DNA of 23,156 nucleotides from the NCBI GenBank assembly GCA_008632985.1, contig QPGO01000143.1, forward strand, positions 186,001-209,156, written 5' to 3'. Every line of letters begins with the position of its first letter. Position 1 is the stretch's first letter. The stretch comes from Psammoneis japonica (taxonomy: Eukaryota). Under the pieces are notes generated by a model. That model ran no database searches and was not told the DNA's origin. It saw only the letters and a program-made list of their open reading frames with translations. The position numbers and the translations under genes are program-made. Below, one piece after another: positions 1 through 21,139 of this stretch.

Positions 1-179
1 GTCACAGAAACTTCTGCAAAGCTGCAAAATCTCATTGCACACAGTTGTGGCTCAGAGCAGCACTGTGCAGGCATTTTGCTCAAAGTGCATGACTTTGTGT
101 GACAACAATTTGAAAAAGCATGTGCCACCATCACAGCCACTGCGGTGCACCGCTTGAGTCATGTTTTGTCCAGCACCGT

Positions 180-270
180 TTGCTCAAACACACGATGTGT
201 TTGAGCAAGAAATGGGCTGAATGTGTTTGAACAATTGCTCAAATTTGTTGAGCAATTGTTGCTCAAACAT
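180..270. repeat. Cluster of TTGCTCAA/TTGAGCAA motifs including a perfect 13-bp hairpin (180-208)
   Basis: ttgctcaaacaca-cga-tgtgtttgagcaa, with further copies in 225-270. Confidence 0.85.
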
Positions 271-828
271 GTGCTGCAAGTGCAAAGTGGAGGCTGCCTG
301 CACAGAGCTGGCCCACTGCACAGTGCTTGCAGTGCACACTGCAATTGCTGCTTTTGTCAACTGGTGCATGCAGGGGTGTCAGTGCAAAAAACAAAAGCAT
401 CAGAAACAAAGTGGTGTTTGCAGCCATTGGCGACCAACAAAGAGCGCAGTTTCTCTGTGACAACACCTTCAAGAAACCCAGCAATCCAATGAAAAACATG
501 TGGCACAAACTTGTGCATGAAAATGTTGAAAGTTCTGGCAGAACAGGCTTGATGGGGGGTGGGGTGCAACAAGAAGAAGAGAAAGTGTTGCACAACATTT
601 TTGCCTCTTGTTTCGATCGAAAACATTTTTCAAAGTGTGCTGAGGAATTGACATGTGCCACAACATTGAGGTTTGTTGTTCCAAGTCAAAAACATGTGGC
701 AAATGGATCATCAGTGTGCCGACACTGTCTTCATGTCATCAGAGCGCCATGATGCAACGTCCTCGGCCGTGTGCCAACATGGTGGATTTTTTTCACACAG
801 GGCTCTGTTGCACCAAGCTGGCAAATGT

Positions 829-940
829 TTTTGACCAATTGCTCAATCTTGCGCAAGTTTGAGCAATCTCGGAAGTTTGAGCATTTTGCTCAAACTTGCC
901 AAGTTTGAGCAAATGGGGACGCAAATTTGAGCTGTTGCTC
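829..940. repeat. Second cluster of TTGAGCA/TGCTCAA motifs with overlapping hairpins (873-897 and 885-913)
   Basis: aagtttgagca-ttt-tgctcaaactt (11-bp stem) and tttgctcaaactt-gcc-aagtttgagcaaa (13-bp stem). Confidence 0.85.
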
Positions 941-1150
941 CTTTCAGTCGCGAAAGCAAGACTGGAACTCTCAGTCATGACCGTTAACTTTTACTTAGCA
1001 TGCGCCCTGACTCTGCAAGACTCTCACAAAATCGCATCTCTGCAAACGAAAGCCGAAAGCTGCAAATTCACCCTCTCCCCTCTTAGTGTAGAGAACTAAC
1101 TGGCATGATTGATCGATCTACTAAAAGTGATTGTCCAGAAACTCATCAAC

Positions 1151-2335
1151 ATGAAATCCCCGTTTCGCTACACAGCACTGATGATGTTAAATTTCATCCC
1201 GTTGTTGAGATTGATGTGGCTTCATCCGATTCATGAGAAGTCGGAAGAAATGTTCGTAACGGATCCTGATAAACCCGTTACCGACTTGCCTAACTTGCAA
1301 GAGGAGCATTCCTTATGCGCATCTTGGGACAAGAACATGGATGACTGGTGGACAAGCCATCCCGATTGGAGTCTCTCATCTGAGAATGACACGCACTACT
1401 GCTTTTCGCCGATGGAAGACAAAGCCAAAGCTAAGTTCTTCCGGAGACTACACGACATTCAACATAACGGAGACTGCTCAAATATGGTAGTTAAGGAGCT
1501 TTGGTCATCAGGTTGGGGAGCTGACTTTCTTAACATTAATGATGGTCTCATTCACGCCCTCGATGCGAAACAACCGGTGCAAATGCACACACATAGCCAT
1601 TGGCACTACGCGGCCAACAAGGAGAATGGGAGTCATGCTGCGTGCCCGAAAAAGGATCTGTCTTGCTTCTTTCTGAATATGTCATCTTGTGAGGTACCGG
1701 ATGACCTTCCCAGAGAGAAAGTGGTCAATGCTCTTCTTGCAACGAAATATTCTCTCCATATTCATGAACTCATGTCGAGCTGGGCATACGAATACGCGAC
1801 CCGCCCACAAAGCTGGCTGAGGCGTGCCGTGTATGAGTACTCAACCAAATCGGCTAATCTATCTACGCCGTGTGCGGCCATGCACGTCCGTAGAGGTGAT
1901 GTTGTACTGCATGGCAATTGGTCACGAAAGTACCACGAGATTCACGAGTACATCGACGCAGCAACGGAACGAAATCGTTCTCTACACAAAGATGAACGAA
2001 GCATTTTTTTGCTGACAGATGATCAAAATGCAATTGAAGAAGCATCATCCCAGTTTCCTGACTACAACTGGGTGTTTCTAGATAGGCCACGCCATCGTGG
2101 GGCTGAAGGCGGGTGGGAAAGTCAGACCCCATCCAACGACCCGAAACAGGAAGTGATCATCATGTTGTCCATTTTTCGTCTGGTTCAGCAATGTGATACA
2201 CTCATTCACTCTACCAGTAACTTTGCCGACTACCTCTGGCACTACATGAGCGACTCCGTGAAAATCAACATTGATGACGGGAAATCCGATGTGTACGGTG
2301 CACATAATTTCAAAGAAGTCGTCACGCCGAACTAA
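1151..2335 (+). CDS. GT23 / alpha-1,6-fucosyltransferase-like (FUT8/NodZ-type) glycosyltransferase, type II membrane, 394 aa
   Basis: Uninterrupted ORF from ATG 1151 with an N-terminal hydrophobic anchor. Motifs AMHVRRGD, IFLLTDD and QCDTLIHSTSNF match the GDP-fucose-binding motifs of alpha-2/alpha-6 fucosyltransferases. Confidence 0.75.
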   Translation: MKSPFRYTALMMLNFIPLLRLMWLHPIHEKSEEMFVTDPDKPVTDLPNLQEEHSLCASWDKNMDDWWTSHPDWSLSSENDTHYCFSPMEDKAKAKFFRRLHDIQHNGDCSNMVVKELWSSGWGADFLNINDGLIHALDAKQPVQMHTHSHWHYAANKENGSHAACPKKDLSCFFLNMSSCEVPDDLPREKVVNALLATKYSLHIHELMSSWAYEYATRPQSWLRRAVYEYSTKSANLSTPCAAMHVRRGDVVLHGNWSRKYHEIHEYIDAATERNRSLHKDERSIFLLTDDQNAIEEASSQFPDYNWVFLDRPRHRGAEGGWESQTPSNDPKQEVIIMLSIFRLVQQCDTLIHSTSNFADYLWHYMSDSVKINIDDGKSDVYGAHNFKEVVTPN

Positions 2336-2896
2336 CAGGTGCTATTCAAGCTTTGCTTACTGAATGTATCAAACAATTCAAAGAAAGACTTGTTTTTGTA
2401 ATCTCTTGTGGTGATTGCATCGTTTAGCATTGTAACACGGGTACGTAGTAGCCCTTGGTCAGGATATTACATGCAAGATGGATGCTACGACTAGGTTAGA
2501 ATAGGAAAACTTTAAATTATGTAGGAGAACCACAACCCATAGACACCTTCCAGCTTCTCTTCGACTGCTAAAGAGCAAGACTCGCTCTCTTCTCGTGTGG
2601 CGCAATAAAGCAAGGAGATGGGTCGACATCTTACTCCAATCATACGTGTTGGACATGCGGCTGCATGTCGTTCATTCGTACGACACAATTCGTCTTTAGG
2701 GTTTATTGCGTGTTGCTGCTTTGGTATCTCCTTTTTGTTTTTTAAGTAGAGTAGCATGGGCTTCCTGAATAATGTGTACGGTAGTGTTGCAGGGAAGATA
2801 ATAATGTGCAATGAGTGTTCCAGTTGTTCCTCCGACATACAAGTTCAACTCTATTCTAGCTAGAGTAGAGAGTCATTAGTCGACAAAACTACAATA

Positions 2897-5722
2897 CATG
2901 GCATTCAGATGACCGAGACATTTGCGAAGATCCTGCCATTTCGCTTCATGACGGTGCTGGTGTGCTCCTCACAGAATGGCAACACTGCGAACGAAAGCGC
3001 CATGAGGCATGAACAAGAACCTCAATGCCAAATTGTGCATCAGAATGCCCATTGTGCCATGCTGCAATCTGAGAGGCATCTGCAGAGAAAGACTTGTCTC
3101 ACAGAAGCAGCAGATCTTTGAACCCATGCCAGCTGAAGCTGTTGTGGACAAGGCCAGCTGTGCTGTCCACCTCAAATGCACCCATGGAGCAGTTCCTCCT
3201 TTTCTTTCAGGGTGTCAAGAGAAAGGTCATTCCACTGGCTGGCCATTGAAGAAAGAGTGGCGCCAGCTTTAACCCAGGCCAGCATTGCAACACTCAAGGG
3301 CAGCATTTCAGCCTTCCCGCCCATTGGGTGTGCAGTGTGCGCAGCAACTTTGCTGACAACATCTTCATCTTAAATCTTTCAAGTGAGTAGAAAGAAACAA
3401 ATGGTGCCCACAAAGCAACTGTGAAAGAGCCACAGATGTGGCACAGCTCTTGTTGTGCCCAGCGCAGCACTGAAAAGCATGCTTGAGTTGCAGCTGAGAG
3501 CTTGGGGCATGCTGGCGGGATGAGGCAATGTCACTTGGATCCTCTGCAGGAGACAGCCAGCAACAGCAAACAGAGTTGTCAGACTGGGCACATTGGAACA
3601 AACACAGCTTGCTGTTTCAAACATTCCTCTCCCTCTCCTTGAAGCCACCATTTCCTTGGCAACAATGAGCTGGTCTAAAAGAAAATTGGGGCGCGGGGTG
3701 CCTTTTGCACATTTGCAACCCTGGCTTGAACCCTGCCCAGAACTGGAGAAGGGTTTGCCTCAATTGTGTTTCAAATGTCAAGAGAATGTGATTGTGCAAA
3801 CCTTCAAATTCAACTCTGTGGGAGGAGGATGGCGGCAACTGGGGTTGGCAGCTGGAGAGGCACAAGCCACCAACAAGAAAGGAGCTTGGCATTGCTGGGA
3901 GATGTGGTGTGGAACGACAGGTCTTCAATTGGTGCTTTGAGTTGTGGCAAAGTGTCATGACCCACAAAATCATTTGATGTCACCAAGTTTGGTGAGCCAC
4001 CCATCCTCTCCAGCAATTTTGAAACTCAGAGTTGTTGATTGTTGACACAGTGTGACAATTTTTTCTTGGATGGGATGTGTCCCAAACCCCAACTTTTTCT
4101 TCTTGTGTGCTGGAAGTGGCAGCCCAAATTGTCCAAAGAAAAGGCCGGACAATCTGGCGCACTGCTTTGTGTGCAGAAAAAGAAGACAACTCTCTTTGCA
4201 ACCCAAACTGTGGCCTGATTTGATGAGTCATGCTGGGAGTTGACAGCAGAAGAGTGGTGGCCAAGAGTGCACACGTGTGCTGGGCTCATGTTGCAGCTCT
4301 TGCTGCTTCTTGCTCCTTGCCCTCACATGTGTGTTGTGTTTGATGGCAGGTGCACTTGCATTTTGCCAAACAAAGTGCAAGTTTTGTGAGAAGCTGTCAG
4401 CAAAAAAGCCTCTGCCAGCAAACAGGAGTCATTGGCTGTCATGCTGTGGACAGCCAGTTGAGAAAGGAGAACCCAACATGAGACAAGGCAAAAGTCCATT
4501 GCACCAACTTAAGCCAACACAGCTGTTCAAACATGGGAGGAGCCCTGCATCAACTGGAGAAGGGAAAGATGCAAGTGACACGTTGTGACAGTGCTGCAAC
4601 TGGTGGTGCAATCTTCATGTGTGCACCACCCATTTTCCCCTTCCTCAACTCTTTCTCTTTTTTTTGTTGCTGATGGTCAGTTTGTTTGGCTTTGTTTCTT
4701 TTTTGCTGACGTCTTTGTGCACTTTGGCTTTTGCTTTTCTTTGTCATCATTTTTTCCCACATGGCAGCCTCTGCAGCTCCAGCCACCCACATTGACCTCT
4801 GTGCTCATGTTTTGTTTGGGCCAAAGCAGCTGCATTTTTTCTCAATGGAGTTTGCCCTTTTTGTGCCTGCAAGTTTGTTCTTGGCAATCCAGTCATTGTT
4901 TTTGCTGGCCCTGTGAGGAACAAATTGTGGCACACACACTTTGTGTTTCTCTAAAAATTGCTGTTTTTTGTTGTGCCGGTTTCTTGGCCTTGCGGGCTGG
5001 GTTCACAGCTGCAAAAGTTTTTTGTTCTTGCCTGCTTCAGCATCCAAGATTTTTGCTTCAAACAGAGCAGATGGGGCCTCTTTTTGGCATCCCACCCTCC
5101 TCAAACATGCCCTCTTTGGCTTTGTCTGACTTGCTGCTTGCTTGCCACTTGAAGCATGGAGGAGTCCAAGGACAAGGCCAATGGACCAGAAGGATGGCTG
5201 AAAGTGGGCCAAAGAAGGAAAGCATGCTTTTTCCAATTGCTGGCTTTTGCCATGTCAACCACCTTGATGAGGGCTTTCTTGTTGTTCTTCTGGCTGTGAT
5301 GATTGATGAGCTCTCTGTCAGCTGATGCAAAACTGTCAATCAGAAAGGTGTCATCATCCTTGTCTGGTTCGCTCTTGAGAACTTTTGTTGTGGCACTGCT
5401 TCATCGGAGGAGAAAAGGCAAATGAAATGCCAACCCCAATCTTCAAAAGGGGCTTGAGTGACTTTTGGGTTCCCAGCCTTGACTGTGTTCTCAGTCATCT
5501 CAGAGTTGTCCAGTGTTCCATCTCCACCACCACGTTTCCTGTGGTGCTTTCCATCCATCGGGTGCTGGCATCTTTTCCCATGTTGTCAAAGAGCTTGTTT
5601 TGGATGCCTTGTTGCTTCGAATTTTTTTTGGAGAAGTCGTCTCGCTTTGTGTGGCCATCTTCTTGCAGGAGGACGGTGCACCTTTGCATTTGGTGCTGTT
5701 GGTTTTGGTGGCCATGGCGTTT
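2897..5722 (-). pseudogene. Hypermutated TpA/CpG-depleted block containing a decayed minus-strand coding sequence of unknown family (TE or captured gene)
   Basis: Only 6 TA in about 2.8 kb. Protein-like minus frames, e.g. from ATG 5715 (MATKTNSTK...KVLKSEPDKDDDTFLIDSFASADRELIN) and 3369-2946 (DEDVVSKVAAHTAHPMGGKAEMLPLSVAMLAWVKAGATLSSMASQW...), are broken by TGA and lack Tyr. Confidence 0.5.
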
Positions 5723-6111
5723 TATGGATGCTGTTTCCACTTGTGCTCAGGAATTCGTGCCACTCTTCGAAGACTCTCTAGCCGTTGCGCGCCGGAAAAG
5801 TGACAATCCAACAAACTGTGTGACGGAATCGTCTGGTCCATCCATCTTCCAGTAGAATCGTCGTGGACAGAATAAAAGCACAAAGGGCAAGGGACTTGCT
5901 AGAATAATTTTCCTGGGTAAGGAAAGCGATTTCCATCTGTCCATATTAAGACTTGATGATAAAACATTATCTTCTGCAATTACTGATGAAACGGTAGAAA
6001 AGCGTCTACGTTAGATGAATCATTCTAGGTATTCTTGCTAGATGTTATGACTACATCCGCTTCCACCCTGAAAAGATATGCATCTGTTACAGTTTGCCCC
6101 TTTCACGGCGT

Positions 6112-6939
6112 TCATTTGATTCTTGTAACAAGTACCTCAAATAGCAGAGTCGCGTCTGTCTTGAATAGGTTTTCGAACCTTCGCTTTCCGTCTTTTGTAG
6201 TAGGTAGGGGAAGTTGGTTTGCTTTGCGGGCAGGATAAACCTGTGTGGATGGAACCTCGATCCGTCGCAAAGCATTTCGATGCATCCCCATCATGCCCTC
6301 TTCTAGACCTGGCAATAGTTCGCCACTTCCAATTGTCCATGCCAATTCATTAAAATCTGTATCTTCCTTTGTGGAAAAAAACTTGATCCCTCCAGGTTCG
6401 TTCTGTGTCGCAAAGGACTTGCATCGAATCGTCATTTCGACAGCCACCTTGGATCCCTGACGGACGACTGTGAAGATGGATAAAGCCTTATGTTATATAA
6501 GGTACGTGAACAGCATTACATGTTTGAAAATGCTCAACACCAATGGTACGTACCCTCCTCTCCCTTTCCTTCGCGGTATTCACGATACGACACGCCAGAC
6601 GGCAACTCCGTGAACGGAACATCGACAAGGTCTGTTGCCGGTTTTTGGATGGCTTCGATCTGACGCAATCGTTGTGCCGTCCCCGATTCATCTCCCTCTA
6701 CGGGGAGACTTTCAGCAGCGACGGGTCGATCCCGGCATTTGCCACCGATGGGATTGTCAACAAGGTCGCGAGGCTGCTAGCTGTAGTAAGAAACGACCGA
6801 CGACTTGTTGCTGTACTTCCTGTCTTTGTCGATTCGGCGCCCGTTGTTGAGTAGTTAGAGAAAAAGCAATGCAGACCTCCCCAAATCCGATCGCCTGAGC
6901 AACAAGGACAAGTACACACGGCTTCAGCTGTACCATCAT
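6112..6939 (-). CDS. FKBP-type peptidyl-prolyl cis-trans isomerase, probably plastid thylakoid-lumen targeted; 2 exons (intron 6468-6553); two apparent 1-bp deletions (~6805, ~6711)
   Basis: FKBP motifs LPSGVSYREYREGKG, GELLPGLEEGMMGM and ATLLFEV. Signal peptide ends ...CIA-FSL, followed by a twin-arginine peptide SRRSFL...VANA. A GTACGT...CACAG intron joins the frames correctly. The start could alternatively be 6948. Confidence 0.8.
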
Positions 6940-7404
6940 GGCGGCCATCAAATAAGATTGCAATAGCGGTGTTAGCGGTGTTGTAGGGGAGATACATAGT
7001 GATGACGATGTCACGAGAAAGCTTATCATGGCAAGGTGAAAGATACTTTCCGCATCAGTGATGATTTTTAATCTACAGCACGGACTATTGTATAATAAAT
7101 CACTATGACAAAAATAGAACGTGATTTTCGCTTACAGCTGACGATGAAACGGCTCGCTGTGAGATTTGTACTCGACGAGCCGTGGAATATTATATATTCA
7201 TCCTTTATATATTATAAACTGAATAGTACTACAATTCCTTATACTACATATACCTGGTATTTACTGTACTGTGTGGATTCTCCCTCCATCGTGGATCGAC
7301 GAAGAAAATCGACATGATGCGAATCGTGCGTGGTGTTTTTCTTGCTGTTGCTTTTAATCCCCACAATCATTGCAAAAGCAACAACCATCAACAACAACGA
7401 AACG

Positions 7405-8039
7405 ATGCAATCAGATACAGCGAATGATGCTGCAATTGCCTTGGCAATCGCAGAGCAAGAACACCAACAAGCAACAGCAAACAATTCTTCTGTTGTCGCG
7501 CACGACTCGTCATCGGCACGTCGTCCTCCACAACAACAACCATCACCGTCTCAAACGAGTAGTGTCTCGTTACCTCCATGGCTTTCTTCGCTCGTTCGAC
7601 AACAACAACCCTACATGTGCACGGTTCCCTGCGTGATTAGTGGTATTTGTGTCGAACTCATGGTGGATTCGGGAGCATGCACGTCGGTCATTTCGTATGA
7701 ATTGGCCAAACGCTTGAATTTGGAGTCACGCATCGACCGCCGACACGGTGGTGTCGCCAATGGGTGGGACAAGCCAAGATTTTGGGAAAAATATCGGGAG
7801 TTCCGGTCGAATTGGGACATGTCGAGTTTTGTATGGATTACTCCGTCTTGGATGTACCGCAACAACAATTGTTGTTGTTGGGATTGGATCAAATGAGAAA
7901 ATACAAATGCATTATTGATTTGGAACAGGATGTACTGATCTTTGGTGGGCATGGTGGCGTACAGGTACCCATGTTGAAACCACATCAGCAGCAACAACAG
8001 CCAATGTTTCGAACACAAGACGCATGTGAAATCATGTAA
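7405..8039 (+). CDS. DDI1-like retroviral-type aspartyl protease domain protein with no UBL/UBA; apparent 1-bp deletion at ~7763
   Basis: Catalytic MVDSGA. Adding one G gives GVANGVGQAKILGKI, then LLLGLDQMRKYKCIIDLEQDVLIFG, typical of the Ddi1 RVP domain. Confidence 0.8.
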
Positions 8040-8521
8040 ATTAGGTGTTTGGGCAGAGCTGGTCCTTTTCGCGATGTGATGCTCCTCCCTCCATACCGGT
8101 GCAGTAGTAGAGTAGCTTGGTTAGAGAGTTTTCTGCAGTGCACCAGTAGCCACAACACCAGCCAACCCAAAAAGCCAAAATGCTGTGAATATAACGAATA
8201 GTACCCGTACGTCTTGTTGAGTTGTCGCGGCTCTTTCGCTCACAAAAGTTCACGACCAAAGCACGACTGCGAGAGGAGATTTGATTTCAGCCACACGACC
8301 CAAACCACGTTGGTCATCGGAGCACTATCGTCCATTCGAAGCTAACAATCCCTGTACTGGTACTTGATTCTTAATTGGGATACACTAGTTAATCATATCA
8401 CTACTTTGACCTTATACAAGAAAGCCCACTCCACTAAATTGTGCTTGTTCTTTTTCATTGTACATGAGCTGGTCCTTTGCTGCTACCCCTCCTTCTTGTT
8501 ACTTTTTCCCGGCCTGTTTGG
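7871..8521 (+). repeat. Direct repeat copy A (~650 bp): DDI1-like 3' end, intergenic DNA and last codons of ACS
   Basis: Colinear diverged match to 10395-11053, from gttgttgttgggattggatcaaat to ttactttttcccggcctgtttgg. Confidence 0.95.
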
Positions 8522-8630
8522 TCACAAAAAAATAGGTGCCCAGGTTAGCCCCGTTGTACGTAAATGGGAACGGAGGGAAATCCAGCCGAACTAGGCCACC
8601 ATTGACCCCCCCCCAAAAGTGACCAAACAG
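8514..8630. repeat. 12-bp inverted repeat CTGTTTGGTCAC / GTGACCAAACAG at the duplication junction
   Basis: 8514-8525 is the exact reverse complement of 8619-8630. Confidence 0.7.
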
Positions 8631-8860
8631 TAACTTGTTTCAAATGTTAGAATTTGCTTGTCCAATTGACCCTAAAGGTTCCCAATGAAGCACTTGACTC
8701 CTGCCTGTCACAATTTCCCCTAAATACGGTCCGCCAAAAAGTCGTCAATCGCACAATGAGCTCGCGGATCCCGTGTAAAAAAGATACACCACTTTGCTAC
8801 CTACCAGTAATGAAAAACATAGGCATTGGCACTCACAAAGTGTTCTAAGTCGTATCCGGT

Positions 8861-10150
8861 TCATTGCTTGCGGCACACAATTTTAGTTGATGGCATCTCT
8901 TCGCCCTTGCATATTGATTTCAACACGAGTTCGAGAACTATCCAGTTCAGTAGGTCCGTGTTATGACACAAGTTCGCAGAATCCAAGAGAGCCTGAATGG
9001 CCGTGCAATTCCCAATCGACAACGCCGTTGCCAACAGGTCTCGGGAGTACTGAATGGCGGTTGAACCATCATCGTCCACGTTGTCTCTGATGTGGTCCAG
9101 CAACACAACATTATTTAGAAAGGCAGACAAAATCTCAGGAGGCCAAACCCCCTTATTGTTGCCATGCCTCCAAATGAGACACTGAAGAGGAGTGTCGCCG
9201 TCGACATTGGTTTGGAACAAGGCTGTCTTGAGGCATTTCAAGGTTGTCGACGACTTTTGGACCATCCAATTGGCCAGCTCGAGCACTCCATCATTTTTCA
9301 CCGACGCATTCTTAAAAAAGTAGTGCATGGGGTTGTTTCCCCTGCGGTCCTGTCGTCGCAGGGCCGAAGGATAACGGTGAATGACCCTCTTGACAAGGCG
9401 GACCGAAATGCCGGAATAAAGAGCTGCTCCATCCTCTTGCGATAAATAATCCAAGAAAGATTTGGTTGCGGTTGCCGGCGTGTAATCTCGCGATAAGTAG
9501 TCCGAGAAATACTTTGTTCTTGCGACAGCCGTCGTGTAATGTTGCGATAAATAATTCGAGAAAGCATAGTGAAGGGGTAGGCAGTATGTATCCTCATTGA
9601 CGAATTTGACCGCCTCCTTGCGTTTGTCAAAAATGCTCCAAATATAACTGGTAGGCAGCGAGTTTTGGAATGCTTTGTGAAGGGCGTCATCGTCCATAGT
9701 CTCGTCGTCGTCGTCGTTACCGGAAATCGTGTGCAACGCCCAAACAAATGACCTGGGAAGGAAATTGACCGAGCCGCAAGGGTTTCGTTTCCAACTCAAT
9801 AGCGCAACTAGTAACAAGTCTTCGGTGCAGACATTGTCATTCTCGTCGCTCTTGCGGAGACAGATCGACTCGTAACGGACCACATGGATCTTTCCGATTC
9901 TGTCAAAGCGAATGGATGCAGGCTCGGTGATCAAATCGTGTCGATCCATGAGATCGTAGTAACACGAGGGACATCTCGGATAAGCTTGAGTGTCGTCCAA
10001 GCAGCAAATTAGATTCTGAATGTGTTGACGGGCTATTGGAGATAGCGAGTTGTTGTAGGTAGAGGCGAAGGCATCCGGTGGGTCCATGCTAACGGACTCT
10101 TTGTTGTCAGTCCAGTTGGAAGCAGAGGAGAAGGCACGCGGTGGGTCCAT
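8861..10150 (-). CDS. Degenerate ankyrin-repeat-like protein (~429 aa)
   Basis: Long ORF with ankyrin-like segments YCLPLHYAF, VIHRYPSALRRQDRRGNNPMHYFF and QTNVDGDTPLQCLI. Internal repeats are spaced in multiples of 3 (63, 51, 54 nt). Start uncertain: in-frame ATGs at 10438, 10246 and 10150. Confidence 0.6.
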   Translation of the reverse strand: MDPPRAFSSASNWTDNKESVSMDPPDAFASTYNNSLSPIARQHIQNLICCLDDTQAYPRCPSCYYDLMDRHDLITEPASIRFDRIGKIHVVRYESICLRKSDENDNVCTEDLLLVALLSWKRNPCGSVNFLPRSFVWALHTISGNDDDDETMDDDALHKAFQNSLPTSYIWSIFDKRKEAVKFVNEDTYCLPLHYAFSNYLSQHYTTAVARTKYFSDYLSRDYTPATATKSFLDYLSQEDGAALYSGISVRLVKRVIHRYPSALRRQDRRGNNPMHYFFKNASVKNDGVLELANWMVQKSSTTLKCLKTALFQTNVDGDTPLQCLIWRHGNNKGVWPPEILSAFLNNVVLLDHIRDNVDDDGSTAIQYSRDLLATALSIGNCTAIQALLDSANLCHNTDLLNWIVLELVLKSICKGEEMPSTKIVCRKQ

Positions 10151-10394
10151 GTTTGTTGGATGGTTGAAGAGATCAGCAACGTCTCGCGATTGTAATGAAA
10201 TAGCGTGGTTTCTTATGATGTTGGATGCTGGGGATGGGACGAACATGATTGAATGAGATGCATGGTGGTCGCAGGTAGGTCTCGGTCGCAGGTCTGCAGT
10301 CTTGTCTCGACTGACGTGGTCGCGGGAAGCGCACGCAAGCCGCAACGGAAACGCAAGGACCACAACATTGATCAAAGGACCATTTCTTTTGACA

Positions 10395-11053
10395 GTTGTT
10401 GTTGGGATTGGATCAAATAAGAAAATACAAAAGCGCATTATTGATTTGGAACAGGATCTTTGGTGGGCATGGTGGCGTACATGTACCCATGTTGAAATCA
10501 CATCAGCAGCAACATAATGGCCAAAATGTTTCGAACACAAGAAGCATGTGAAATGATGCAAACTAGGTATTTGGACAGAGCTCAGAGCTGGTCCTTCTCG
10601 CGACGTGATGTTCCTATCTCCATACCGGTGCAGTAATAGTTTGGCTAGAGAGCGTTCTCTGTAGTGCACCAGTATCCACAATATAATACCGGCCACCCCA
10701 ATAGTCAAAATGTTGTGAATACCCGTACGTCGTGTTGAGTTGTCGCGGCTCTTTCCCGCACAAAAGTTCACGATTCACGACTGGAGCACGACTTCAGACT
10801 GGGAGGGCATTTCAGCTACGCGACCCCGACTGCGAGGGTCATCGAAGCACTATCGTCCATGCGAAGCTCATAATCTCTGTACCAGTAGTACTTGGTTCTT
10901 CATCGGGATAAACTAGTTAATCATATCACATCATTGCACTACTTCGACCTTACAAACCCACCCTACTATATTGCGCTTGTTCTGTTTCATTGTACGTGAG
11001 CTGGTCCTCTGCTACTACCCCTCCTTCTTTTTACTTTTTCCCGGCCTGTTTGG
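10395..11053 (+). repeat. Direct repeat copy B: frameshifted DDI1-like 3' fragment, intergenic DNA and the functional ACS stop
   Basis: Colinear with 7871-8521. The DDI1 portion carries a +2 insertion and an 8-nt deletion. Confidence 0.95.
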
Positions 11054-13160
11054 CATTGATCTTTTCAATCAACGTGTCGACAATCGACGGGTCCGCCAAG
11101 GTGCTTGTATCGCCCAACGAATCCACCTCACCCGCTACAATTTTGCGCAGAATGCGTCTCATGATTTTTCCACTCCTCGTCATGGGCAAGGACGGCGTGA
11201 CACAAATAACATCGGGACTGGCAAAGGCACCAATCTCGGTGCGGACCATTTGGCGCAGCTCCTTCTCGAGCGTTTCCGTTTCTTCGAATCCCACCGTGAG
11301 CATGCAAAAGGCACAAATCGATTGGCCCTTGATGTCGTGGGCTTGTCCCACCACGGCGGCTTGGGCGACGGCGGGATGACCCACGAGGGCGCTCTCGACT
11401 TCGGCCGTTCCAATGCGGTGACCACTCACGTTGAGCACGTCATCGACACGACCGGTAATAAAGTGGTAGCCGTCCTTGTCGCGAATGACAGCGTCGCCGG
11501 TAAAGTAGTAGCCCTTGTAGGGTTTCATGTACGTCACCAAGTACCGTTGGTGATCGCCCAAACAAGTCCGTGCCATGCCGGGCCACGGTTGACGAATCGC
11601 CATGACACCCTCGACACCATCTTCAGTGGAATCCAATTCCTTGCCCGTGTGAGGGTCCAACACCACCGTGTCAATGCCATAGAAAGGCAAGGAACAACTA
11701 CCGGGTTTCATGGGTGTCACTCCGGGAAGATTGGTAATCACGTGTCCACCCTGTGAAAAAATGTGAAAAAATAGCAGCGTTAGTGTTTTCCTCTACAGAG
11801 GGAGCTTGAACAAATCGGACAAATCATATATATTGTAACTTACCGTCTCGGTCTGCCAATAGGTATCGACAACAGCACAATTCTTCTTGCCCACCACTTC
11901 ATAGTACCACTTCCAGGCTTCGGGATTGATGGGTTCACCAACGGTACCCAGAATTTTGAGACTGTCGAGATTGTGGTTCTCCACATGCTCGTTGCCGTAA
12001 CGCATCAAGAGACGAATGGCCGTCGGTGCCGTGTACAAGGCATTGATTTGATGACGCTCCACCATGTCCCAATAACGAGCCGGCGTTGGATAGACGGGGG
12101 TGGACTCAAACATGAATGTCGTGCCTCCATTCAAGAGAGGGCCATAGACAACGTACGTGTGTCCCGTAATCCAACCACAATCGGCAACACAGGCAAAGAC
12201 ATCGCCCACCTTCAAATCAAACACGATCTTGGCCGTCATGGCAGCGTAGAGGGCGTATCCACCCGTCGTATGGAGCAAACCCTTGGGTTTGCCCGTGCTC
12301 CCCGAGGTGTACAGGATAAAGAGCGGGTCTTCGGCATCCATAGTGGCTGGAACACAGTACGGACGCTGCAAGGCCACGAGCGGATCCATGCGTACATCCT
12401 TGTCCAGCATATCATACGGTGCGTCCTCGGACTTTGGGTCATGAAACCGCTCATACACCAACACCTTTTCCACCAAGTCGTCATTGCACCTCGTCAGAGC
12501 GTCATTGACGATCTTTTTGAGTTGAATGGTTTTCCCTCCACGCTTCCCCACGTCGGCCGTCACGACACACTTGCTTTGCGCCGCCGTAATGCGTTGCGCC
12601 AGAGCTTCGGCGGAAAATCCGGCAAACACCACGGAATGAACGGCACCAATCCGAGTGCACGCCAACATGGTAAAGGCCAATTCGGGAATCATGGGCATGT
12701 AAATCGTGACAACGTCTCCCTGTTGGACACCCTGCGATTTGAGGGCGTTGGCGACTTGACACGTTTTGCGCAACAGCTCGGTATAGGTAATGGACCGCAC
12801 GTCGGCCGGCTCGTCTCCTTCCCATAAAATGGCAACCTCGTTACAGGCTCCTCCTGCGGCTGTTCCCGTTGCCCACCTGTCGACTGCATTGTAACTCATG
12901 TTGAGTTTCCCACCGGCAAACCACGTGACATCGCCATACTCCATGGATCCACCCATGACACTATTGGGATTGAATGGCTGAAACCAATCGAGGTATTCCG
13001 TCGCCTTTTTTGCCCAATACGTTTCGGGATCGGCAATGCTAGTCTCGTGCTCGAGTTTGTACCGAGCCAGAGCCAAGTCAGACTTGCTCTCCACCACTTG
13101 CTTCATCCAAACATTATGTTGCTGCTGTTTCTGCTGGTCTTGCTTTGCTTCTTCAGTCAT
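11031..13160 (-). CDS. ACS: Acetyl-CoA synthetase (AMP-forming acetate-CoA ligase), 2 exons (intron 11751-11843), ~678 aa
   Basis: [31 protein letters not shown] across a GTAAGT...CACAG intron, [23 protein letters not shown] and [13 protein letters not shown]. No obvious targeting peptide. Confidence 0.96.
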
Positions 13161-13167
13161 ATTTACT

Positions 13168-13227
13168 GTTGTCGTTGTTGTTGTTGTTGTTGTTGTTGTC
13201 GAGTCTTATCTATTGTTGTTGTTGTCG
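13168..13227. repeat. (GTT)n/(AAC)n microsatellite just upstream of the ACS start codon
   Basis: gttgtcgttgttgttgttgttgttgttgttgtc...ttgttgttgttgtcg. Confidence 0.9.
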
Positions 13228-13488
13228 TTTTTGTTGAGTCGTATCTCTCTATGAGAACGCGAAGCAACGTCTTGTTGGCTTCAACACCTCCTCAACTGGC
13301 TTTTGGCATCGCGAGTTTGAATGAAGTTGAGTGTGTTGACGAGTGTTCTCATGTTTTCAGAACCTCACGTAGAAATCTACGTTGATTTGTAGGGAAGATC
13401 CAAGATTTGCAAGATTTGCCGCCGACATCAGCACCACGTACGTGCATCGAAAGGTAGACGCGCGTCTCTCTCGCGAGTCGCGAGCGTA

Positions 13489-16400
13489 CCGTGGGCCACT
13501 TTGTGCTTGGTGCTGTCAGCTCTCAGCTCCATCTCTTGTGTGTGCTGACCTCAAGCCCAATGTGTTGGAGCAGGTCTGCTGTGAGGTTGAGCCCATCATC
13601 TCACACTTGCTCTCAGTTGAGAGGCCACAGACAGCTGCCCATTGCTTGTGTGGCAAAATGAAAAAACAGACAGAGTTCTGGCTCCACTCATTTGTCCAAG
13701 GTTGGGTCATGCATGTTGGCCTCCCAGTGGCAACAAATGGCAACATCCCCTCCATTGGATTGAGCATCCTGGGAGATGGAGGGTTGCCATTGGTGCAAGT
13801 CTGTGATGAGCCCAAAATGGCCTCCCCCACAACATCCTGCCTGTTGCACAACTGCCCATTCTTTGCTCCAAAATCCCTGTGGGACACAGCGGGGTTGACA
13901 CCATGCCACCTCTTTGTCTCATCTCAAGGGAGCACCACCTCTCTGGTGAACAAGGTCAAGCACCTTGGCACCAAAGGCAACACGGGGTTGGCGAAGGTGT
14001 TGTGGCTCCAGGATTTTGGGCCCCATCTGAAGCTTGCAACCAACCAATGAATGACACAGCAGCTCCAGCCCCCTGTCTGCCACAAGAGCTGGGAGAAAGC
14101 TTGGGTGGCACAGCACCCCCAGCCAAGGGCTTCTTAGAAGCAGCACAGCTGCAGCCACAATTGCTGCAATGTGGGTCATCATTGCCCAAAGTGCTGTGCT
14201 GCAGATCTCAAACAACTCATGATTTTTTTAAGTCACAAACACAGTGGGGGGCAGCAGAGCCAGCAGAAACACAAGCTTCGCACATGGATTCATCCAAAGA
14301 GGGTGCTTTAAAGCACTGTGCCAAATGTGCCTCAGAGCTCATCAATGCAAGCAGAGAAGTGGTGCATTTGTGTGCAGCTGTGCAGCAGCCAAAGTGCTTG
14401 TGCAGCAGGAGGTTGTGCTTTGGAGCAGGTCTGCTCCTTCAACATCCAACTCTTTGTCACAGAACATTTTCCTGCACAAGTTGCTGCTGTGTGATCCTTG
14501 GCACAACTGCCAACATGCAAATGTCTCTCCTCCCTTGTGGAGCAGACTGCAGTGTGGGTTTCAACTGTGAGTGATCCGTGATGCTGAGAGGTTGTGCAGA
14601 GACTGGCCATCAACATTGCACGTTGCACCTTGGATGTGTGAAAAGAATCCTGAGTGCACAATGTTGCACTGTGCAGCATTCACCAAGTGCCAAGCCAAAC
14701 TTGGAGCATTGCTCTTCACTCGTGAATGAACATGTTCACGCCATTGCATGAAGAAAATGCAGTGCTCAAATGACTTCATGTTTCTCAGCCAGGTGTGCCA
14801 GCTCAGGAGAAATGTTCTTGCAACTGCAGTCAACTGCAATCTGTCAACCTGCTTTTGCTAAAACTGCCTGCTTGGCATGTGAGGCAAGAGCTGCTGCATT
14901 GCAACAGATGATCTGCTGCTTTTTTAAAGCCAAAGCTGCAACTTTTGATTTTTTGGCTTTGGCGCTGCACCACACTGCCCTTTGGGCAGTGCTCTCTTTA
15001 ACTGGGAGACTGGCGAGGTGATGAGTTTTCATCCCAGGTTGGGGTTGGTTGCCGGGTGTGACACTGTGTTCATCTGTTTTCCATCACCATGCTTTTTGCA
15101 TGAGAAACAATTCTCATCTGAGCTCATGCTTTTTCCCAACATTTTGCATCATCTTTCATCAGATCTGTTCACTTTCAATGACTGGCACCACCTTCTTTGT
15201 TTGTTGGAGGGTGCAGACAAAAAGAGAACAAAGCTCTTTCAGAGTCCCTTTTTTTCCACAGCAAAGTGGCAGGAAACTGCACGTGGCAGCTTTTGGAATG
15301 ATGTTCTTGAATTGCTCTTTTTCTGTTTTTTTCTTGTTGCATTTGACCATTTCAAAAGAATGTCAGCTTTCTCTGTTTTGCAATGAACTCGTGCAAAAAA
15401 AGACCATTCTGGCACCATTGTGTTGGTGCAAAAACTTGGGCAAACTGATTCACACACATTTTTCTGTGCGGCCGCCGGCCCTCAAAAGAGCCAGCAGATT
15501 TGTTCACCAGCGCAAATGCCCAGCATTGCAGAGGCAGTCTTTGACTTTGTTGACTGTGTTGCAATGAAATGGTTGCTTGGCAGAAGCAGGTGCACTGGCC
15601 GAACATTGTGGCAGAACCTCTGATGTTTTTAAACAACAACAAACTCTGCTCTCTGTTTTGCAACAAAGCAAGTGGGCTGCAAAATCTGGATGTTGTTGGT
15701 GCCATTGTCATGCTTCACAATGTTTGACACACACGTCACTCATGTCTGAGCTCCTTGGTCATCTTGAACCCTCCTCAAAAACAGAGTGGGGGCATTCTGT
15801 CACTGGCGCCAAAAATCAATCTGTCCAAGTGCATCAAAGTGCCAAGGTGCTGCACATGTTGGCATGAAATGTCAAAGCAACCACTCCAATGTGTCATGAA
15901 AACACAAATCATAAAAACACAAATCAAACCTGGTCAAAAATGTCCCCACAAGACAAAATGCACCACTGGCCACAGCAACACCCCGGTGAACTTTTTGCAT
16001 CAACCAGCCTCCAGCCTTTTCTTGCCACCAGCTCACAACTGTGCTCTTGCTTTCACAGCCCTGGCAGATGTTTGTGTGCAAATGGACATTTCTTCATGGC
16101 AGCAACATCGTGCCTTTGTCTGGTGTGCAAGATTTGTGGATGTGAGAAAAACAAAAAATGGCAACACTGCATGGGAGAGTGCAAAAATTGCACATGGGCG
16201 GCTGTGGTGTGCAAAAAAGTGTGCGTCACACAGAAATGTGCAGGAAACCTCGCCTGTTGTCTCCAAGTGACGACCCACCTGGGTTGAAAACAAATGAGGT
16301 GCAAGAAACAGCAGCCAAATGATGATGAGCTGCCTGCAGTGCCGCCCTCTGCCAGAGCTTGCAAAAGCTGTTGCTTGCGTGCCTGTGCTGCATGGCTCTC

Positions 16401-16631
16401 TGGCAACTGCCTGGCTTGCAGCCATCTCAAAGAAGCACACAGTGCACCCCCACGCAAACAGACGACGAGGAAGGTGTCTGTGTGCCGCACTGCAGCGCAT
16501 GGATCCAAAATGAAAACCATCTTGAAGCAACTTCAAGTGCGCTGACGGAGGAAAACACGCAGACTCGATTGTGACTCTCACATCCCTGTCAGCGCTCCCC
16601 TTCTGACGCATCTGCACGTGTTTGTCTGTTC
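13489..16631 (-). mobile_element. Hypermutated TpA/CpG-depleted block with a decayed minus-strand coding sequence; probable TE relic
   Basis: Only 8 TA in about 3.1 kb. Protein-like minus frames are interrupted by TGA (e.g. MHDPTLDK*VEPELCLFFHFATQAMGSCLWPLN*EQV*DDGLNLTADLLQHIG). No family motif or convincing TIR/LTR recognised. Confidence 0.5.
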
Positions 16632-16729
16632 TACAGATTCCTTCTACGATTTGTCCTACTAAAAGTCGACAAGACTAACCCTAAATGATGTGCAGAAATA
16701 GGGTCCTAACAGTTCCTAGCTAGAGTATA

Positions 16730-17462: not shown

Positions 17463-19672
17463 ATGAAAGCGTTTCTTGCGATCTCTCTCGCTGCGGCCTT
17501 GAAGTTGGGTTACCATGGAAGCTCAGCAGCGGTAAGCAGCTGAAACTCGTTTTGTGCTGAGCTTCGTTGCGCTCTTTCTTAGCCACGGTAACGGTCATTT
17601 TGTATTCTCACGCCGTTGCTGCTCTCCCGATCGCTACACTACAGAGCAACGTCTTTAACCTTCGTGGTCCACCCTTTCAGGATCAGACATTGCCTTGCAC
17701 TATGTTGTTGAAGGAGATTCATCGTGAAATTCCTGACCCGAGTTTGCCCGACTTTGCTTGGGATTGCGAGCTCGATCCTCAGGACGCTGATGGCGTTGAA
17801 GGCATCATTATGGAGCTGGACGGCCTGAACCTTCCACGCGACGCCAAGGATAACTTCGGGCAGAGGCTTATCTCCGGAGAGTCCACAGTCTTTGTGCCCG
17901 GAACCAAGATCGACAAGGGCAAGGCCAAGGCGAAAGTTCCTCCGGGAGTCCCACCTGCGTACGGCCGTCGTCGTCGCGAGGCTGCTCAAGGCGGTCGCCG
18001 ACTTCGGACAGGTAATTGGACGGTTTTTGCTGTACGTGTGATTGCCACTGACGGTTCAACAAGTAGCTCTACTGCTGCCATCAGCAACTTTGTTTTTGGC
18101 ACCTCTGGCGACCAGGTGAACCTCAAATCGCAGTACGCTGCCTGTTCGCATAATCAGCTTATGTTCGAGCCAGCGCCTTTTGCTACAGATGGGGTCATCG
18201 AGGTGACGGTAAACGTTGCTACTACCGAAGGCGATGGAGTCATGAGAAACGCCATTACAAGTGCGATCCAGAACCAATACGGACTTTCACCCAACAGTTT
18301 GGCAAATTATGGTACGTCTTTTTGACTCCTTGTTCATTTCGAGTCTCTTGATTCGTGGAATTAAATGCCCAACACACAAAAACGAGATTGATCTTGTTCT
18401 TGTTGCTAAACTCACTTCTTTTCTTCTGTTTCAGCCATGTATTGCCTCCCTTCAGGTACTATGAGTGGGATTGCGTATGCCTACATTAACTCGTGGAACT
18501 CTGTCTATTCCAACCAATGGTGCAATTACGTTTCCGCTCAAATGCATGAGCTTGGACATAATATTAACCTGGCACACAGCGGTGAAGGATCACAGCAGTA
18601 CGCGGACCAGAGTGGAATGATGGGGTACTCCTATTCGAGTAGCGAGACCCCAAAAATGTGTTTCAACGCAGCAAAAATGTGGCAGCGTAAGTCTACATCA
18701 TTTGGCAAGTGTTCTCATTGTTTGTGAAATATTTACTCTCAACAATAATCTCTCTTTTACCTTCTTTTTCGCATCATGCACAGTCGGTTGGTTTTCTGAC
18801 CGCCACGTAGCGATCAATCCGCTTACTGCGGCTGGACCGGTGATATGATTGGGTCAGTCGACTACGAGAACTCGGCAAGCGACAAAATGATTGTCCTCAA
18901 GATCAACAGGACCGCCACGAGTGAAGATGATTTGTTTGTCATGTTCAACCGAAAGGCTAGCTACAACTCGGACACGAAAGAAGGCGGAAACCAGGTCATG
19001 ATTGTGGAAACCGGAAGAGAAGGCCTTTTGTACGACAAGTCTCTTCTGTAGCCAAGTTGAGTGCTGGTGGGCAGTATGTGATCCCGAATTTTGATGGAAG
19101 TGGAACAGATGTCACCGTTACCGTGAACAGCATCAACCTAAGCAGCACTCCGGCAATAGCGTCGGTAACTGTTCAAGGTTTTACTGCATCTCCAACGGAA
19201 TCCCCAACTCCCTCTCCGACGGATTCACCGACACCTTCCCCTCCACCAACGGATTCTCCAACTGGATCCCCTTCGTCGTCTCCATCAGCGGCGCCAAGCT
19301 CGCCGCCGACTCCTTCCCTCCACCACGTCTTCTCCAACTGGATCCCCGTCGTCGTCTCCATCAGCGGCGCCAAGCTCGCCGCCGACTCCTTCCCCTCCGC
19401 CGACGGCATCTCCGAGTGAATCCCCGTCGTCGTCTCCATCAGCGACGCCAACCTCGGTGCCGACTCCTTCTCCTCCACCGACGGCATCTCCGAGTGATTC
19501 CCCGACGTCATCTCCTACGAAGGGCCCGACGCCGACGCCGACTCGTTCTCCTACACCTTCTCCGACTCCTGCGCCTGTAGCTGTGAATTGTGCTCCGTTG
19601 CGGGGTGGAACATGCAGGGATGCAGGTTGCCAATGGCTAGGTGGACAAGGTGGTTGCGTCCCTTCAAACTAA
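17463..19672 (+). CDS. Secreted M11 (gametolysin-like) zinc metallopeptidase with Pro/Ser/Thr stalk and short Cys-rich tail; introns 17532-17644, 18312-18434, 18687-18783; four apparent 1-bp deletions (~18828, ~19048, ~19317, ~19327)
   Basis: Signal peptide [19 protein letters not shown] processing site. MYCLP...[10 protein letters not shown]. Zinc motif [12 protein letters not shown] and DQSGMMG, then [12 protein letters not shown]. All three GT-AG introns are phase-compatible. Confidence 0.85.
19228..19520 (+). repeat. Coding tandem repeat, 78-bp unit ([20 protein letters not shown].), about 4 copies
   Basis: Unit starts at 19228, 19306, 19382 and 19460 (spacing 78, 76, 78). Confidence 0.9.
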
Positions 19673-20207: not shown

Positions 20208-21139
20208 CTAACTAGATACCCACAAGTGTGGCAATTCTGAAACGAGTCCAAAGATCACATCATGCTTGTCGGACACCTTGGCCAACACGTGGGCCAAAAT
20301 ACCTCGATGCAAGTCTTGATCCCGTACAAGCGAACGACCACATTGGTTGAGTTGAAGATAATGAGAAAGAACTGAATTTTGGTGATTGCGATTGTTGTAT
20401 CTTGCATCCACTAGTTCCAGTGTTGCATTCGACCGAACCAACGACACGAGCTCGGCGTGACCTTGTTCGGAGAACCGATTGTCGCCGAGAAACAAGTGTT
20501 TCAGAGTCGTATTGTGCTTGAGTGCTGCGCACAAGGCCCGGATCCCGTTGTTTCCAATACAATTGTCACTCAAATCCAATACTCGCAATGTTGAATTCTG
20601 TTTCAACGATTTTCCCAAATACATGGCGCCCTCGTCTTCAATATGATTATTGTGCAAAAACAACTCCACCAAACTCGTATTCTTGGCGATACACGACGCC
20701 ATGGCTTTGGCTGCGGCGTTACCAAGGGCATTTTCTTGAAGACCCAATGCCGTGATGGAAGAATCCTCGAAAGACAGGGAATCCGCCAAAGCGGCAATAC
20801 CCGAAACACCAATTTCGTTTTTCGACAACATGACGCGTTGCAACACAGAGTTTTCGCGAAAGGACATGCTCAGCGCAAACGCACCGTCGTCGCCACAGTG
20901 GTTGTTGTGCAGATTCAACACTCGGACACATCTATTTTCCTCAAGATATGGCAATATCTAGAATGCGATCATCCCGCAAAGTGCATTTGTACCATGCGAA
21001 TCTCGGAACAATTGGGCTGATGAATGGGCGGATGCGCCATGGACAAGTAATCCACGTTTTGATCATTACTGCTGCTGTGTCTTTTGCGACGACGAAACGA
21101 AACGCGCTTTATCAAGGCTTTTCGTATTCTTCTCGACAT
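20208..21139 (-). CDS. Leucine-rich repeat protein (RI-like/NLRC3-like 28-aa LRRs); 5' structure uncertain
   Basis: Repeated N..L..L.L..N.IG..G...L units and a C-terminal LNQCGR..L...ILAHVL...IFGLVSELP motif. Joining ATG 21139 to the 20208-20954 ORF needs either two small indels near 20955-20980 or a 35-nt GT-AG intron. Confidence 0.75.

Follow-up and report, generated by a model that had tools for sequence, protein, structure and literature searches.

Can a dinucleotide be erased from whole segments of a genome and, if so, by what? This question is raised by a contig of Psammoneis japonica (QPGO01000143.1, assembly GCA_008632985.1), of which we analyzed positions 186,001-209,156 on the forward strand. 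This stretch of 23,156 nt is called the window throughout, and positions are counted from its first letter. We describe three domains of the window (D1, D2 and D3) in which TpA (TA) is absent or nearly so, CpG (CG) is reduced and TG and CA are about doubled. With a probability of roughly 65%, we think that they record a saturating, domain-targeted hypermutation of double-stranded DNA from TpA to TpG and CpA, with a slower decay of CpG on top.

Three domains depleted of TpA

The initial annotation of the window, made from the letters alone, had reported that TA is missing up to position 984 and returns abruptly at 985. Our count confirms this: the first TA of the window stands at 985, the next ones at 992 and 996, and positions 1-984 hold none. 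From the base composition of this segment (D1) one would expect 71.3 TA, or 43.0 after scaling by the ratio of observed to expected counts (o/e) that TA has outside the domains, 0.60. Against the scaled value the Poisson probability of a zero count is ~2e-19, and in 2000 mononucleotide shuffles of D1 the TA count never fell below 49. The block had been called AT-rich, which is only mildly so (46% G+C), and its CG, described as reduced yet present and put at about 18, was counted as 19. A sliding composition profile had also been proposed. Run within the window, a list of TA gaps together with a 100-nt profile delimited the domains and brought out two further ones, D2 and D3:

Positions 1-984 (D1): 984 nt, cut by the left end of the window; 0 TA (o/e 0.00), 19 CG (0.36), 119 TG (1.91), 117 CA (1.96), TG+CA 236.
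Positions 2897-5722 (D2): 2.8 kb; 6 TA (o/e 0.03), 32 CG (0.19), TG/CA o/e 1.64/1.77.
Positions 13489-16631 (D3): 3.1 kb; 8 TA (o/e 0.04), 41 CG (0.22), TG/CA o/e 1.92/1.78.
Rest of the window: 16.2 kb; 663 TA (o/e 0.60), 934 CG (1.01), TG/CA o/e 1.21/1.20.

The three domains account for 30% of the window. Depletion of TA is fuller than that of CG (o/e 0-0.04 against 0.19-0.36), as the annotation had it. The longest TA-free run outside the domains measures 334 nt, in a GC-rich coding tandem repeat (19228-19557), and the longest one in 31 unrelated metagenome loci of 40-55% G+C (332,979 nt) measures 274 nt.

Independent contigs of the same DNA

Are the domains real? We compared the window with the Logan contigs of a public run (X1), an independent assembly of a sample that may be the source of the window's own assembly. 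X1 contains 89% of the sampled words of the window, and its contigs match as follows:

Positions 1-915: 3 differences.
Positions 2198-4510: 11 differences.
Positions 4583-8844: 0 differences.
Positions 13239-16657: 3 differences.

These contigs cross three of the five domain boundaries (left and right of D2, left of D3) with more than 31 nt on each side. In most bins their summed depth is 56-68, be it in a domain or in a flank, and it rises at repeats or at matches to paralogues of a GT23 gene that neighbours D1. The domains are single-copy intergenic DNA. An artefact of sequencing, base-calling or assembly, such as systematic miscalls at modified bases, might be suspected where there is a single sample, possibly the assembly's source. 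Yet the X1 contigs show 3, 11 + 0 and 3 differences, depth like that of the flanks and continuity into the neighbouring genes. As independent contigs they rule out an artefact of assembly or polishing, and one of sequencing chemistry would be odd with sharply bounded domains. We therefore regard an artefact of any kind as extremely improbable.

Dinucleotide signature

What kind of change would leave this composition? Transitions leave the class of a dinucleotide step unaltered, be it pyrimidine-purine (YR), purine-pyrimidine (RY) or two of a kind (RR/YY). The YR share is 0.238-0.252 in the domains and 0.249 outside, with RY and RR/YY shares likewise unchanged, and the fraction of YR steps that are TG or CA is 0.955 in the domain cores (delimited below) versus 0.604 outside. 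This fits what the transitions TA>TG/CA and CG>TG/CA would leave, in a test that is weak, ~0.25 being also the random value. When each TA and CG of the flanking sequence was converted in silico, the TG/CA o/e became 2.0, compared with 1.8 observed in the domains.

The two products are balanced. TG:CA is 119:117 in D1, 332:270 in D2 and 371:355 in D3, and a strand runs test, diluted by native TG/CA steps, detected no strand runs (z -0.9 to 2.0). Because both strands changed equally, this argues for action on duplex DNA and not on RNA or first-strand cDNA.

The sequence context of the change can be read from what was spared and from what was gained. TTAA is the context of 8 of the 14 residual TA and NTAA that of 12. 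A T_A context applies to 3.2% of TA outside the domains and to 6.6% of the TG/CA flanks inside, and the binomial probability of the TTAA survivors is ~1e-6. Ratios of domain to rest are 0.01 for TAC/GTA and TAT/ATA, 0.04 for TAG/CTA and 0.18 for TAA/TTA. The gain of TG/CA centres on TGC/GCA (2.13-fold), with excess counts of +80 for TTGC/GCAA, +86 for CTGC/GCAG and +95 for GTGC/GCAC, and only +3 for TCAC/GTGA. Such a survival rule is what a rate-limited chemical process predicts. AA and AG steps are not depleted in the domains; GA/TC is somewhat depleted and AA/TT enriched (AA o/e 1.42 versus 1.17 outside). Taken together, the pattern fits a change of A to G with a very strong preference for a 5' T and an apparent 3' order of C, T > G > A, which would depend partly on the ancestral composition. 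Depletion among CG trinucleotides is strongest for TCG/CGA (0.15) and weakest for GCG (0.40).

The surviving TTAA are located at 3270, 3371, 4510, 14229, 14309, 14925, 14999 and 15630, all eight in the CG-poorest cores of D2 and D3. The margins and D1 hold none of the 14 residual TA; this difference between cores and margins is statistically non-significant.

Cores, margins and edges

Within the domains, the zones of TA loss and of CG loss can be separated:

Positions 1-700: core of D1; CG o/e 0.22, TG/CA 2.05, AT 0.62, GC 1.63.
Positions 701-984: right margin of D1; 0 TA, CG o/e 0.69.
Positions 2897-3000 and 5501-5722: margins of D2; 0 TA, CG o/e 0.96 and 0.52.
Positions 3001-5500: core of D2; TA o/e 0.04, CG o/e 0.12.
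Positions 13489-16100: core of D3; TA o/e 0.05, CG o/e 0.14.
Positions 16101-16631: right margin of D3; 0 TA, CG o/e 0.53, TG/CA o/e 1.81.

The margins, of 104-531 nt each and 1141 nt in total, hold no TA at a CG o/e of 0.52-0.96, as against 0.12-0.22 in the cores. Since TA is missing beyond the limits of the CG-poor core, the two losses differ in extent, which suggests two processes or very different rates. Of the RY steps, AT makes up 0.195 in the domains compared with 0.26 outside, and GC 0.34 compared with 0.22. This shift is of the same size in cores and margins and hence belongs with the TA process, not with CG decay.

The margins also bear on whether the loss of TA could be a by-product of the loss of CG. 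Deamination of 5-methylcytosine at CpG might trigger mismatch repair with an error-prone polymerase of the Pol eta type, whose errors are WA>WG (W, A or T), as in phase 2 of antibody hypermutation. It would then be natural that both losses coincide in the same domains. But the enrichment of AA shows that the motif is TA and not WA, and the TA-free margins with their much better preserved CG show that TA loss is independent of local CG loss; such a repair route therefore seems to us very unlikely.

TA, at 0 per 100 nt just inside the right edge of D3, stands at 5-8 from 16632 on. The left edge (13489) is abrupt for TA and CG alike: 14 CG per 100 nt and normal TA give way to 400 nt with one CG and no TA. 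A CG-rich palindromic stretch (13436-13487) adjoins this border.

One signature on different sequences

Do the domains share an ancestor or only a fate? The initial annotation had ascribed three domains to the same mutational process and had spoken of copies of an element. The first of these views is supported by the common signature (TA near zero, CG down, TG+CA doubled); the second was not borne out. We found no sequence common to D1, D2 and D3, neither by blastn, which returned only short palindromes within D1, nor after collapsing every YR step, which leaves the comparison undisturbed by transitions at TA, CG, TG and CA and yielded only composition-driven matches. Nor do the domains have conserved flanks, target-site duplications or terminal repeats in common, the best flank alignment scoring 24, equal to the maximum of the shuffled controls. 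Because they share a signature but no sequence, one process has acted on different DNA and not on copies of one element. A search of the domains for long terminal repeats (LTRs) and terminal inverted repeats (TIRs) found none.

Weak tblastn matches had suggested a hypermutated GT23 pseudogene in D2 or D3. This candidate was rejected. A GT23 profile built from the window's own protein and the first 80 of its 120 homologues (81 sequences in all) gave at most 0.1 bits on the real frames, with a null median of -1.0 and a 95% point of 3.5, and a Smith-Waterman alignment allowing reversion of TG/CA to TA/CG also scored within its null. The weak matches stem from the translations of TG/CA-rich DNA, which are rich in W, C, H and Q.

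Gene setting of the locus

The genes around the domains point to a diatom-like host. Closest among the named relatives of the acetyl-CoA synthetase are diatom proteins (59-70% identity), and the GT23 open reading frame (ORF) has diatom relatives as well:

Positions 1109-2335, plus strand: GT23 (FUT8-like) glycosyltransferase-like ORF.
Positions 6468-6553, minus strand: GT..AG intron of an FKBP-type isomerase gene.
Positions 13160-11843 and 11749 downwards, minus strand: two exons of the acetyl-CoA synthetase gene.
Positions 11750-11842, minus strand: GT..AG intron of the acetyl-CoA synthetase gene.

A further run of the same sample (X2), labelled 'DNA?', is probably a transcriptome or cDNA-like, because its contigs omit 6468-6553 and 11750-11842, whose ends, CT..AC, are those of minus-strand GT..AG introns. 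None of the listed runs with this sequence is recorded as RNA. The GT23 gene has D1 on its upstream side; D2 separates the 3' ends of that gene (plus) and of the FKBP-type gene (minus), and D3 separates the acetyl-CoA synthetase gene (minus), at its 5' end, from the next ORF (plus). Without the domains, the intergenic gaps would measure only ~0.9 and ~1.3 kb, and these short gaps suggest that the domains are insertions. When the acetyl-CoA synthetase was used to scan metagenomes, 4 of 80 loci were diatom-like, all of them short and with TA-free runs of at most 174 nt; the loci were mostly bacterial.

The domain edges come to within a few hundred bases of genes. This, together with the near-complete loss, might be taken to speak for a functional constraint, i.e. 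for selection against TA and CG through escape from a TA- or TTAA-targeting transposase or nuclease, through DNA structure or through a regulatory RNA. Yet selection would be needed over ~7 kb of unrelated sequence, in which we found no Rfam family, no coding signal and no similarity between domains, and the TTAA survivors are the opposite of what avoidance of TTAA targets would leave. We consider such a constraint quite improbable.

Other features of the window were noted in passing. A (TGT)n microsatellite and a 35-nt duplication (13167-13246) lie directly upstream of the start codon of the acetyl-CoA synthetase. The ORF at 7330-7896, just upstream of a 650-bp repeat described below, encodes a retropepsin/DDI1-like aspartyl protease domain (Pfam E 3e-7) and may be part of a retroelement without TA depletion. 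The minus-strand ORFs 22334-23068 and 20208-20954, one with a weak match to a PARP-type zinc finger (below the Pfam cutoff) and the other with leucine-rich repeats, have normal dinucleotide content and are ordinary neighbours. The tandem repeat at 19228-19557 consists of 4.3 copies of a 78-nt unit (84-89% identity), is rich in GC and in CG and reads as a Pro/Ser/Thr-rich coding repeat.

Repeats and the age of the composition

Was the DNA rewritten where it now lies, or did it arrive in its present state? D1 contains two clusters of a 9-mer motif, in both orientations:

Positions 76-267, both orientations: TTTGAGCAA / TTGCTCAAA motif cluster, 7 matches, short palindromes.
Positions 830-912: second TTTGAGCAA / TTGCTCAAA cluster, 6 matches, in a region repeated elsewhere in the genome.

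D1 holds 13 of the 20 matches of the 9-mer TTTGAGCAA in the window (at most one mismatch), and its eight exact copies keep identical TG and CA. A scan of viral contigs with the palindrome motif of D1 returned 120 unrelated loci, none of them TA-depleted. At 585-1168 the summed contig depth reaches 250.8, with joints and loose ends at 830-918. Since this part of D1 and positions 14601-15228 of D3 have matches of 85% or more on other contigs of this genome, parts at least of the domains are dispersed repeats. The sequence beside these other matches is TA-poor as well (1 TA in 180 nt, from six loose-end consensus sequences).

These observations bear on a different history, in which the composition is older than the insertion and families or foreign DNA were already free of TA and CG on arrival or amplification, be it through editing of RNA or cDNA in retrotransposition, through editing at an earlier locus or through TA-avoidance evolved under host pressure. 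The TA-poor surroundings of the other D1 and D3 matches would follow from it, as would the same TG and CA in all eight exact copies of TTTGAGCAA and the left edge of D3, which is sharp for TA and CG together like the end of an insertion. Against it, single-stranded editing should be asymmetric, whereas each of the three domains has a TG:CA of ~1:1; searches of the domains turned up no reverse transcriptase, integrase, transposase, LTR or TIR; three unrelated sequences are in the same state; and TA-free margins with near-normal CG fit a spreading in place better than an element with a single history. On balance we judge a composition acquired before insertion to be unlikely.

D2 has relatives of a different kind. 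Its positions 3497-3635 (139 nt) match, with 24 differences, a 16.4-kb contig that represents another part of the genome and bears a GT23 paralogue as well (1316-1449 matched, 134 nt, 12 differences). A 2.6-kb cDNA-like contig of X2 likewise matches both a piece of the GT23 gene and 3497-3635. Judging from these alignments, an unaltered, transcribed relative of part of D2 probably exists. Apart from this paralogue-derived piece, no X2 contig falls on the domains, a blank that is no evidence of silence.

The window also contains a direct repeat of ~650 bp (7871-8521 and 10395-11053) with normal TA. Its copies are 89% identical, and their 66 mismatches have an ordinary spectrum: 43 transitions and 23 transversions, 10 of the mismatches TA-linked and 9 CG-linked. 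The copy at 10395-11053 extends over the start of an orphan ORF of 636 codons (8861-10771, minus strand), for which no Pfam family and no homologue among 5.8 billion proteins was found. A suspected homology of positions 748-828 in D1 to the 650-bp repeat was dismissed, the alignment showing none.

Proposed mechanism and points against it

The hypermutation that we favour might have proceeded as follows. The domains would be intergenic DNA of a diatom-like nuclear genome, probably old insertions and perhaps of foreign origin, rewritten in place. In them the adenines of TpA on both strands of the duplex would have become guanine (TA>TG, TA>CA) for as long as any substrate remained, the likeliest chemistry being deamination of adenine to inosine in DNA by a deaminase of the TadA/ADAT2 type. 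TpA followed by C or T would have reacted fastest, then G, then A, so that TTAA is the last survivor, and a weaker shift from A:T to G:C would have affected AT, AC and GT steps. A slower loss of CpG to TG/CA, restricted to the emptied cores, would have come on top. Its simplest cause might be deamination of 5-methylcytosine in silenced DNA, because diatoms methylate and silence transposable elements via DNMT5a; a single deaminase may also have made both the A>G and the C>T changes.

Several observations weigh against this hypothesis. We infer the direction from TA to TG/CA from composition, and one sample is the source of all read evidence. One-shot conversion of flank-like sequence reproduces neither the AT deficit of the domains (0.71 observed, 0.93-0.97 simulated) nor their GC excess (1.39 observed, 1.07-1.13 simulated), which leaves a different ancestor or changes beyond TA and CG as the explanation. 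The 89% repeat pair is untouched, so repeats as such are not all targeted. Foreign or transposon genes did not come to light in the domains: Pfam searches on 18 frames, with stops read as X, gave two sub-threshold matches only, to Med16_bridge (E 0.081) and APOBEC_C (E 0.023). An RY signal of period 3 is absent (~1) in D1 and D3; in D2 a single weak 600-nt window at 3201 reaches 6.4. Positions 3151-3849 (plus frame, stops as X) had no match by phmmer among 1.84 billion proteins.

Novelty and possible significance

To our knowledge, natural deamination of adenine in DNA is barely documented in eukaryotes. A literature search found no report of TpA-free domains or of TpA hypermutation in diatoms, the only matching phenomenon being that of a 2026 preprint on the chlorarachniophyte Bigelowiella natans, so far the one organism in which targeted A-to-G hypermutation of DNA has been measured. 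As far as a footprint can tell, new features at this locus are a stramenopile host, complete saturation, the narrower core of CpG decay, the T-A-Y / TTAA rule (Y, pyrimidine) and targets without recognisable foreign genes.

If our reading is true, the diatom footprint would make this hypermutation less of a curiosity and more of a genome-defence strategy general to major marine algae. The domains would provide clean end-state substrates with sharp borders for studying the choice of targets and for tracking down the enzyme, and the extended rule (T-A-Y fast, TTAA slow) would be binding on any candidate enzyme. Silenced or foreign DNA of algal genomes might also be found by a simple screen of composition, and a natural TpA-specific DNA adenine deaminase would be relevant to base editing.

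The domains suggest that a defence like fungal repeat-induced point mutation (RIP), but of opposite polarity, is widespread in marine algae. In the strongest form of this idea, diatoms would have a nuclear enzyme of the TadA/ADAT2 type that deaminates adenine in DNA, prefers T-A-Y, is perhaps responsible for the T-C-G loss too and acts on chosen chromatin domains. Since the same footprint and a measured process exist in a rhizarian, such a system might be ancestral to, or widespread in, the SAR group (stramenopiles, alveolates and rhizarians), and it could fill much of the genome. We put this extension forward tentatively, with the odds somewhat against it.

Comparison with known systems

Which enzyme could be behind such a process? 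ADAR, an animal enzyme with a 3' G preference, resembles it in the change of A to G and in the preference for a 5' U. However, it would require an RNA copy written back into DNA, strand-coherent runs are absent here, and TAG/CTA is the second-best survivor, kept better than TAC or TAT. The natural target of tRNA adenosine deaminases is U33-A34 of tRNA, which is TpA-like. This enzyme family, to which the TadA-derived base editors also go back, can bring about both A>G and C>T in DNA. Amphioxus ADAT2 (BjADAT2) deaminates both A and C in DNA. For C it prefers TCG, which is also the CG trinucleotide most depleted in the domains, whereas its reported A context in E. coli is GAA and not TA (PMC10354150). 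No deaminase gene was found in the window.

CpG decay of methylated elements is a second relative. In diatoms, loss of DNMT5a depletes methylation and de-represses young transposable elements (PMC9998398). The low CG of the cores and the gain of TG/CA resemble such a decay, which cannot explain the loss of TA; of the two zones, the one poor in CG is the narrower.

Like the process proposed for the domains, fungal RIP is of a defence-like kind: it rewrites chosen stretches of DNA by transitions at particular dinucleotides, goes on to saturation and leaves sharp borders. Its direction is opposite: RIP converts CpA to TpA and thereby raises TpA (PMC2621366), while here TpA stands at 0-0.04 and CpA/TpG at 1.6-2.0. 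Duplication as a trigger is also not evident here, the 89%-identical pair in the window being untouched; the domains have no sequence in common, and some parts of them are repeated elsewhere.

The closest parallel is found in Bigelowiella natans. In mutation-accumulation lines of this alga, the mutation rate of two integrated viral regions is ~1000 times that of the remaining genome; 230 of 231 mutations in them are A>G or T>C, all of those at TpA, and the authors' candidate is an ADAT2-like DNA adenosine deaminase (Mettrop et al., bioRxiv 10.64898/2026.01.13.699255). The available preprint text does not mention CpG, diatoms or wider sequence context. Thus the CpG loss and the T-A-Y / TTAA context seen here are not described in that part of the source. 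Further differences concern the host, rhizarian there and a diatom-like stramenopile here; the degree of loss, with a rho of 0.45 in a region of nucleocytoplasmic large DNA virus (NCLDV) origin there and a TA o/e of 0-0.04 here; the targets, viral there and without recognisable viral or transposon genes here; and the kind of evidence, a measured mutation rate there and a footprint here. In both genomes, TpA is lost and CpA+TpG gained on both strands of discrete, kilobase-scale regions, nuclear in Bigelowiella and probably so here, while the remaining sequence is normal, and many of the Bigelowiella clusters are likewise without annotation. Every 500-nt window of D2 and D3 falls within the thresholds used for those clusters (rho TpA at most 0.43, rho CpA+TpG at least 1.52), which the preprint applied on a 1-kb grid.

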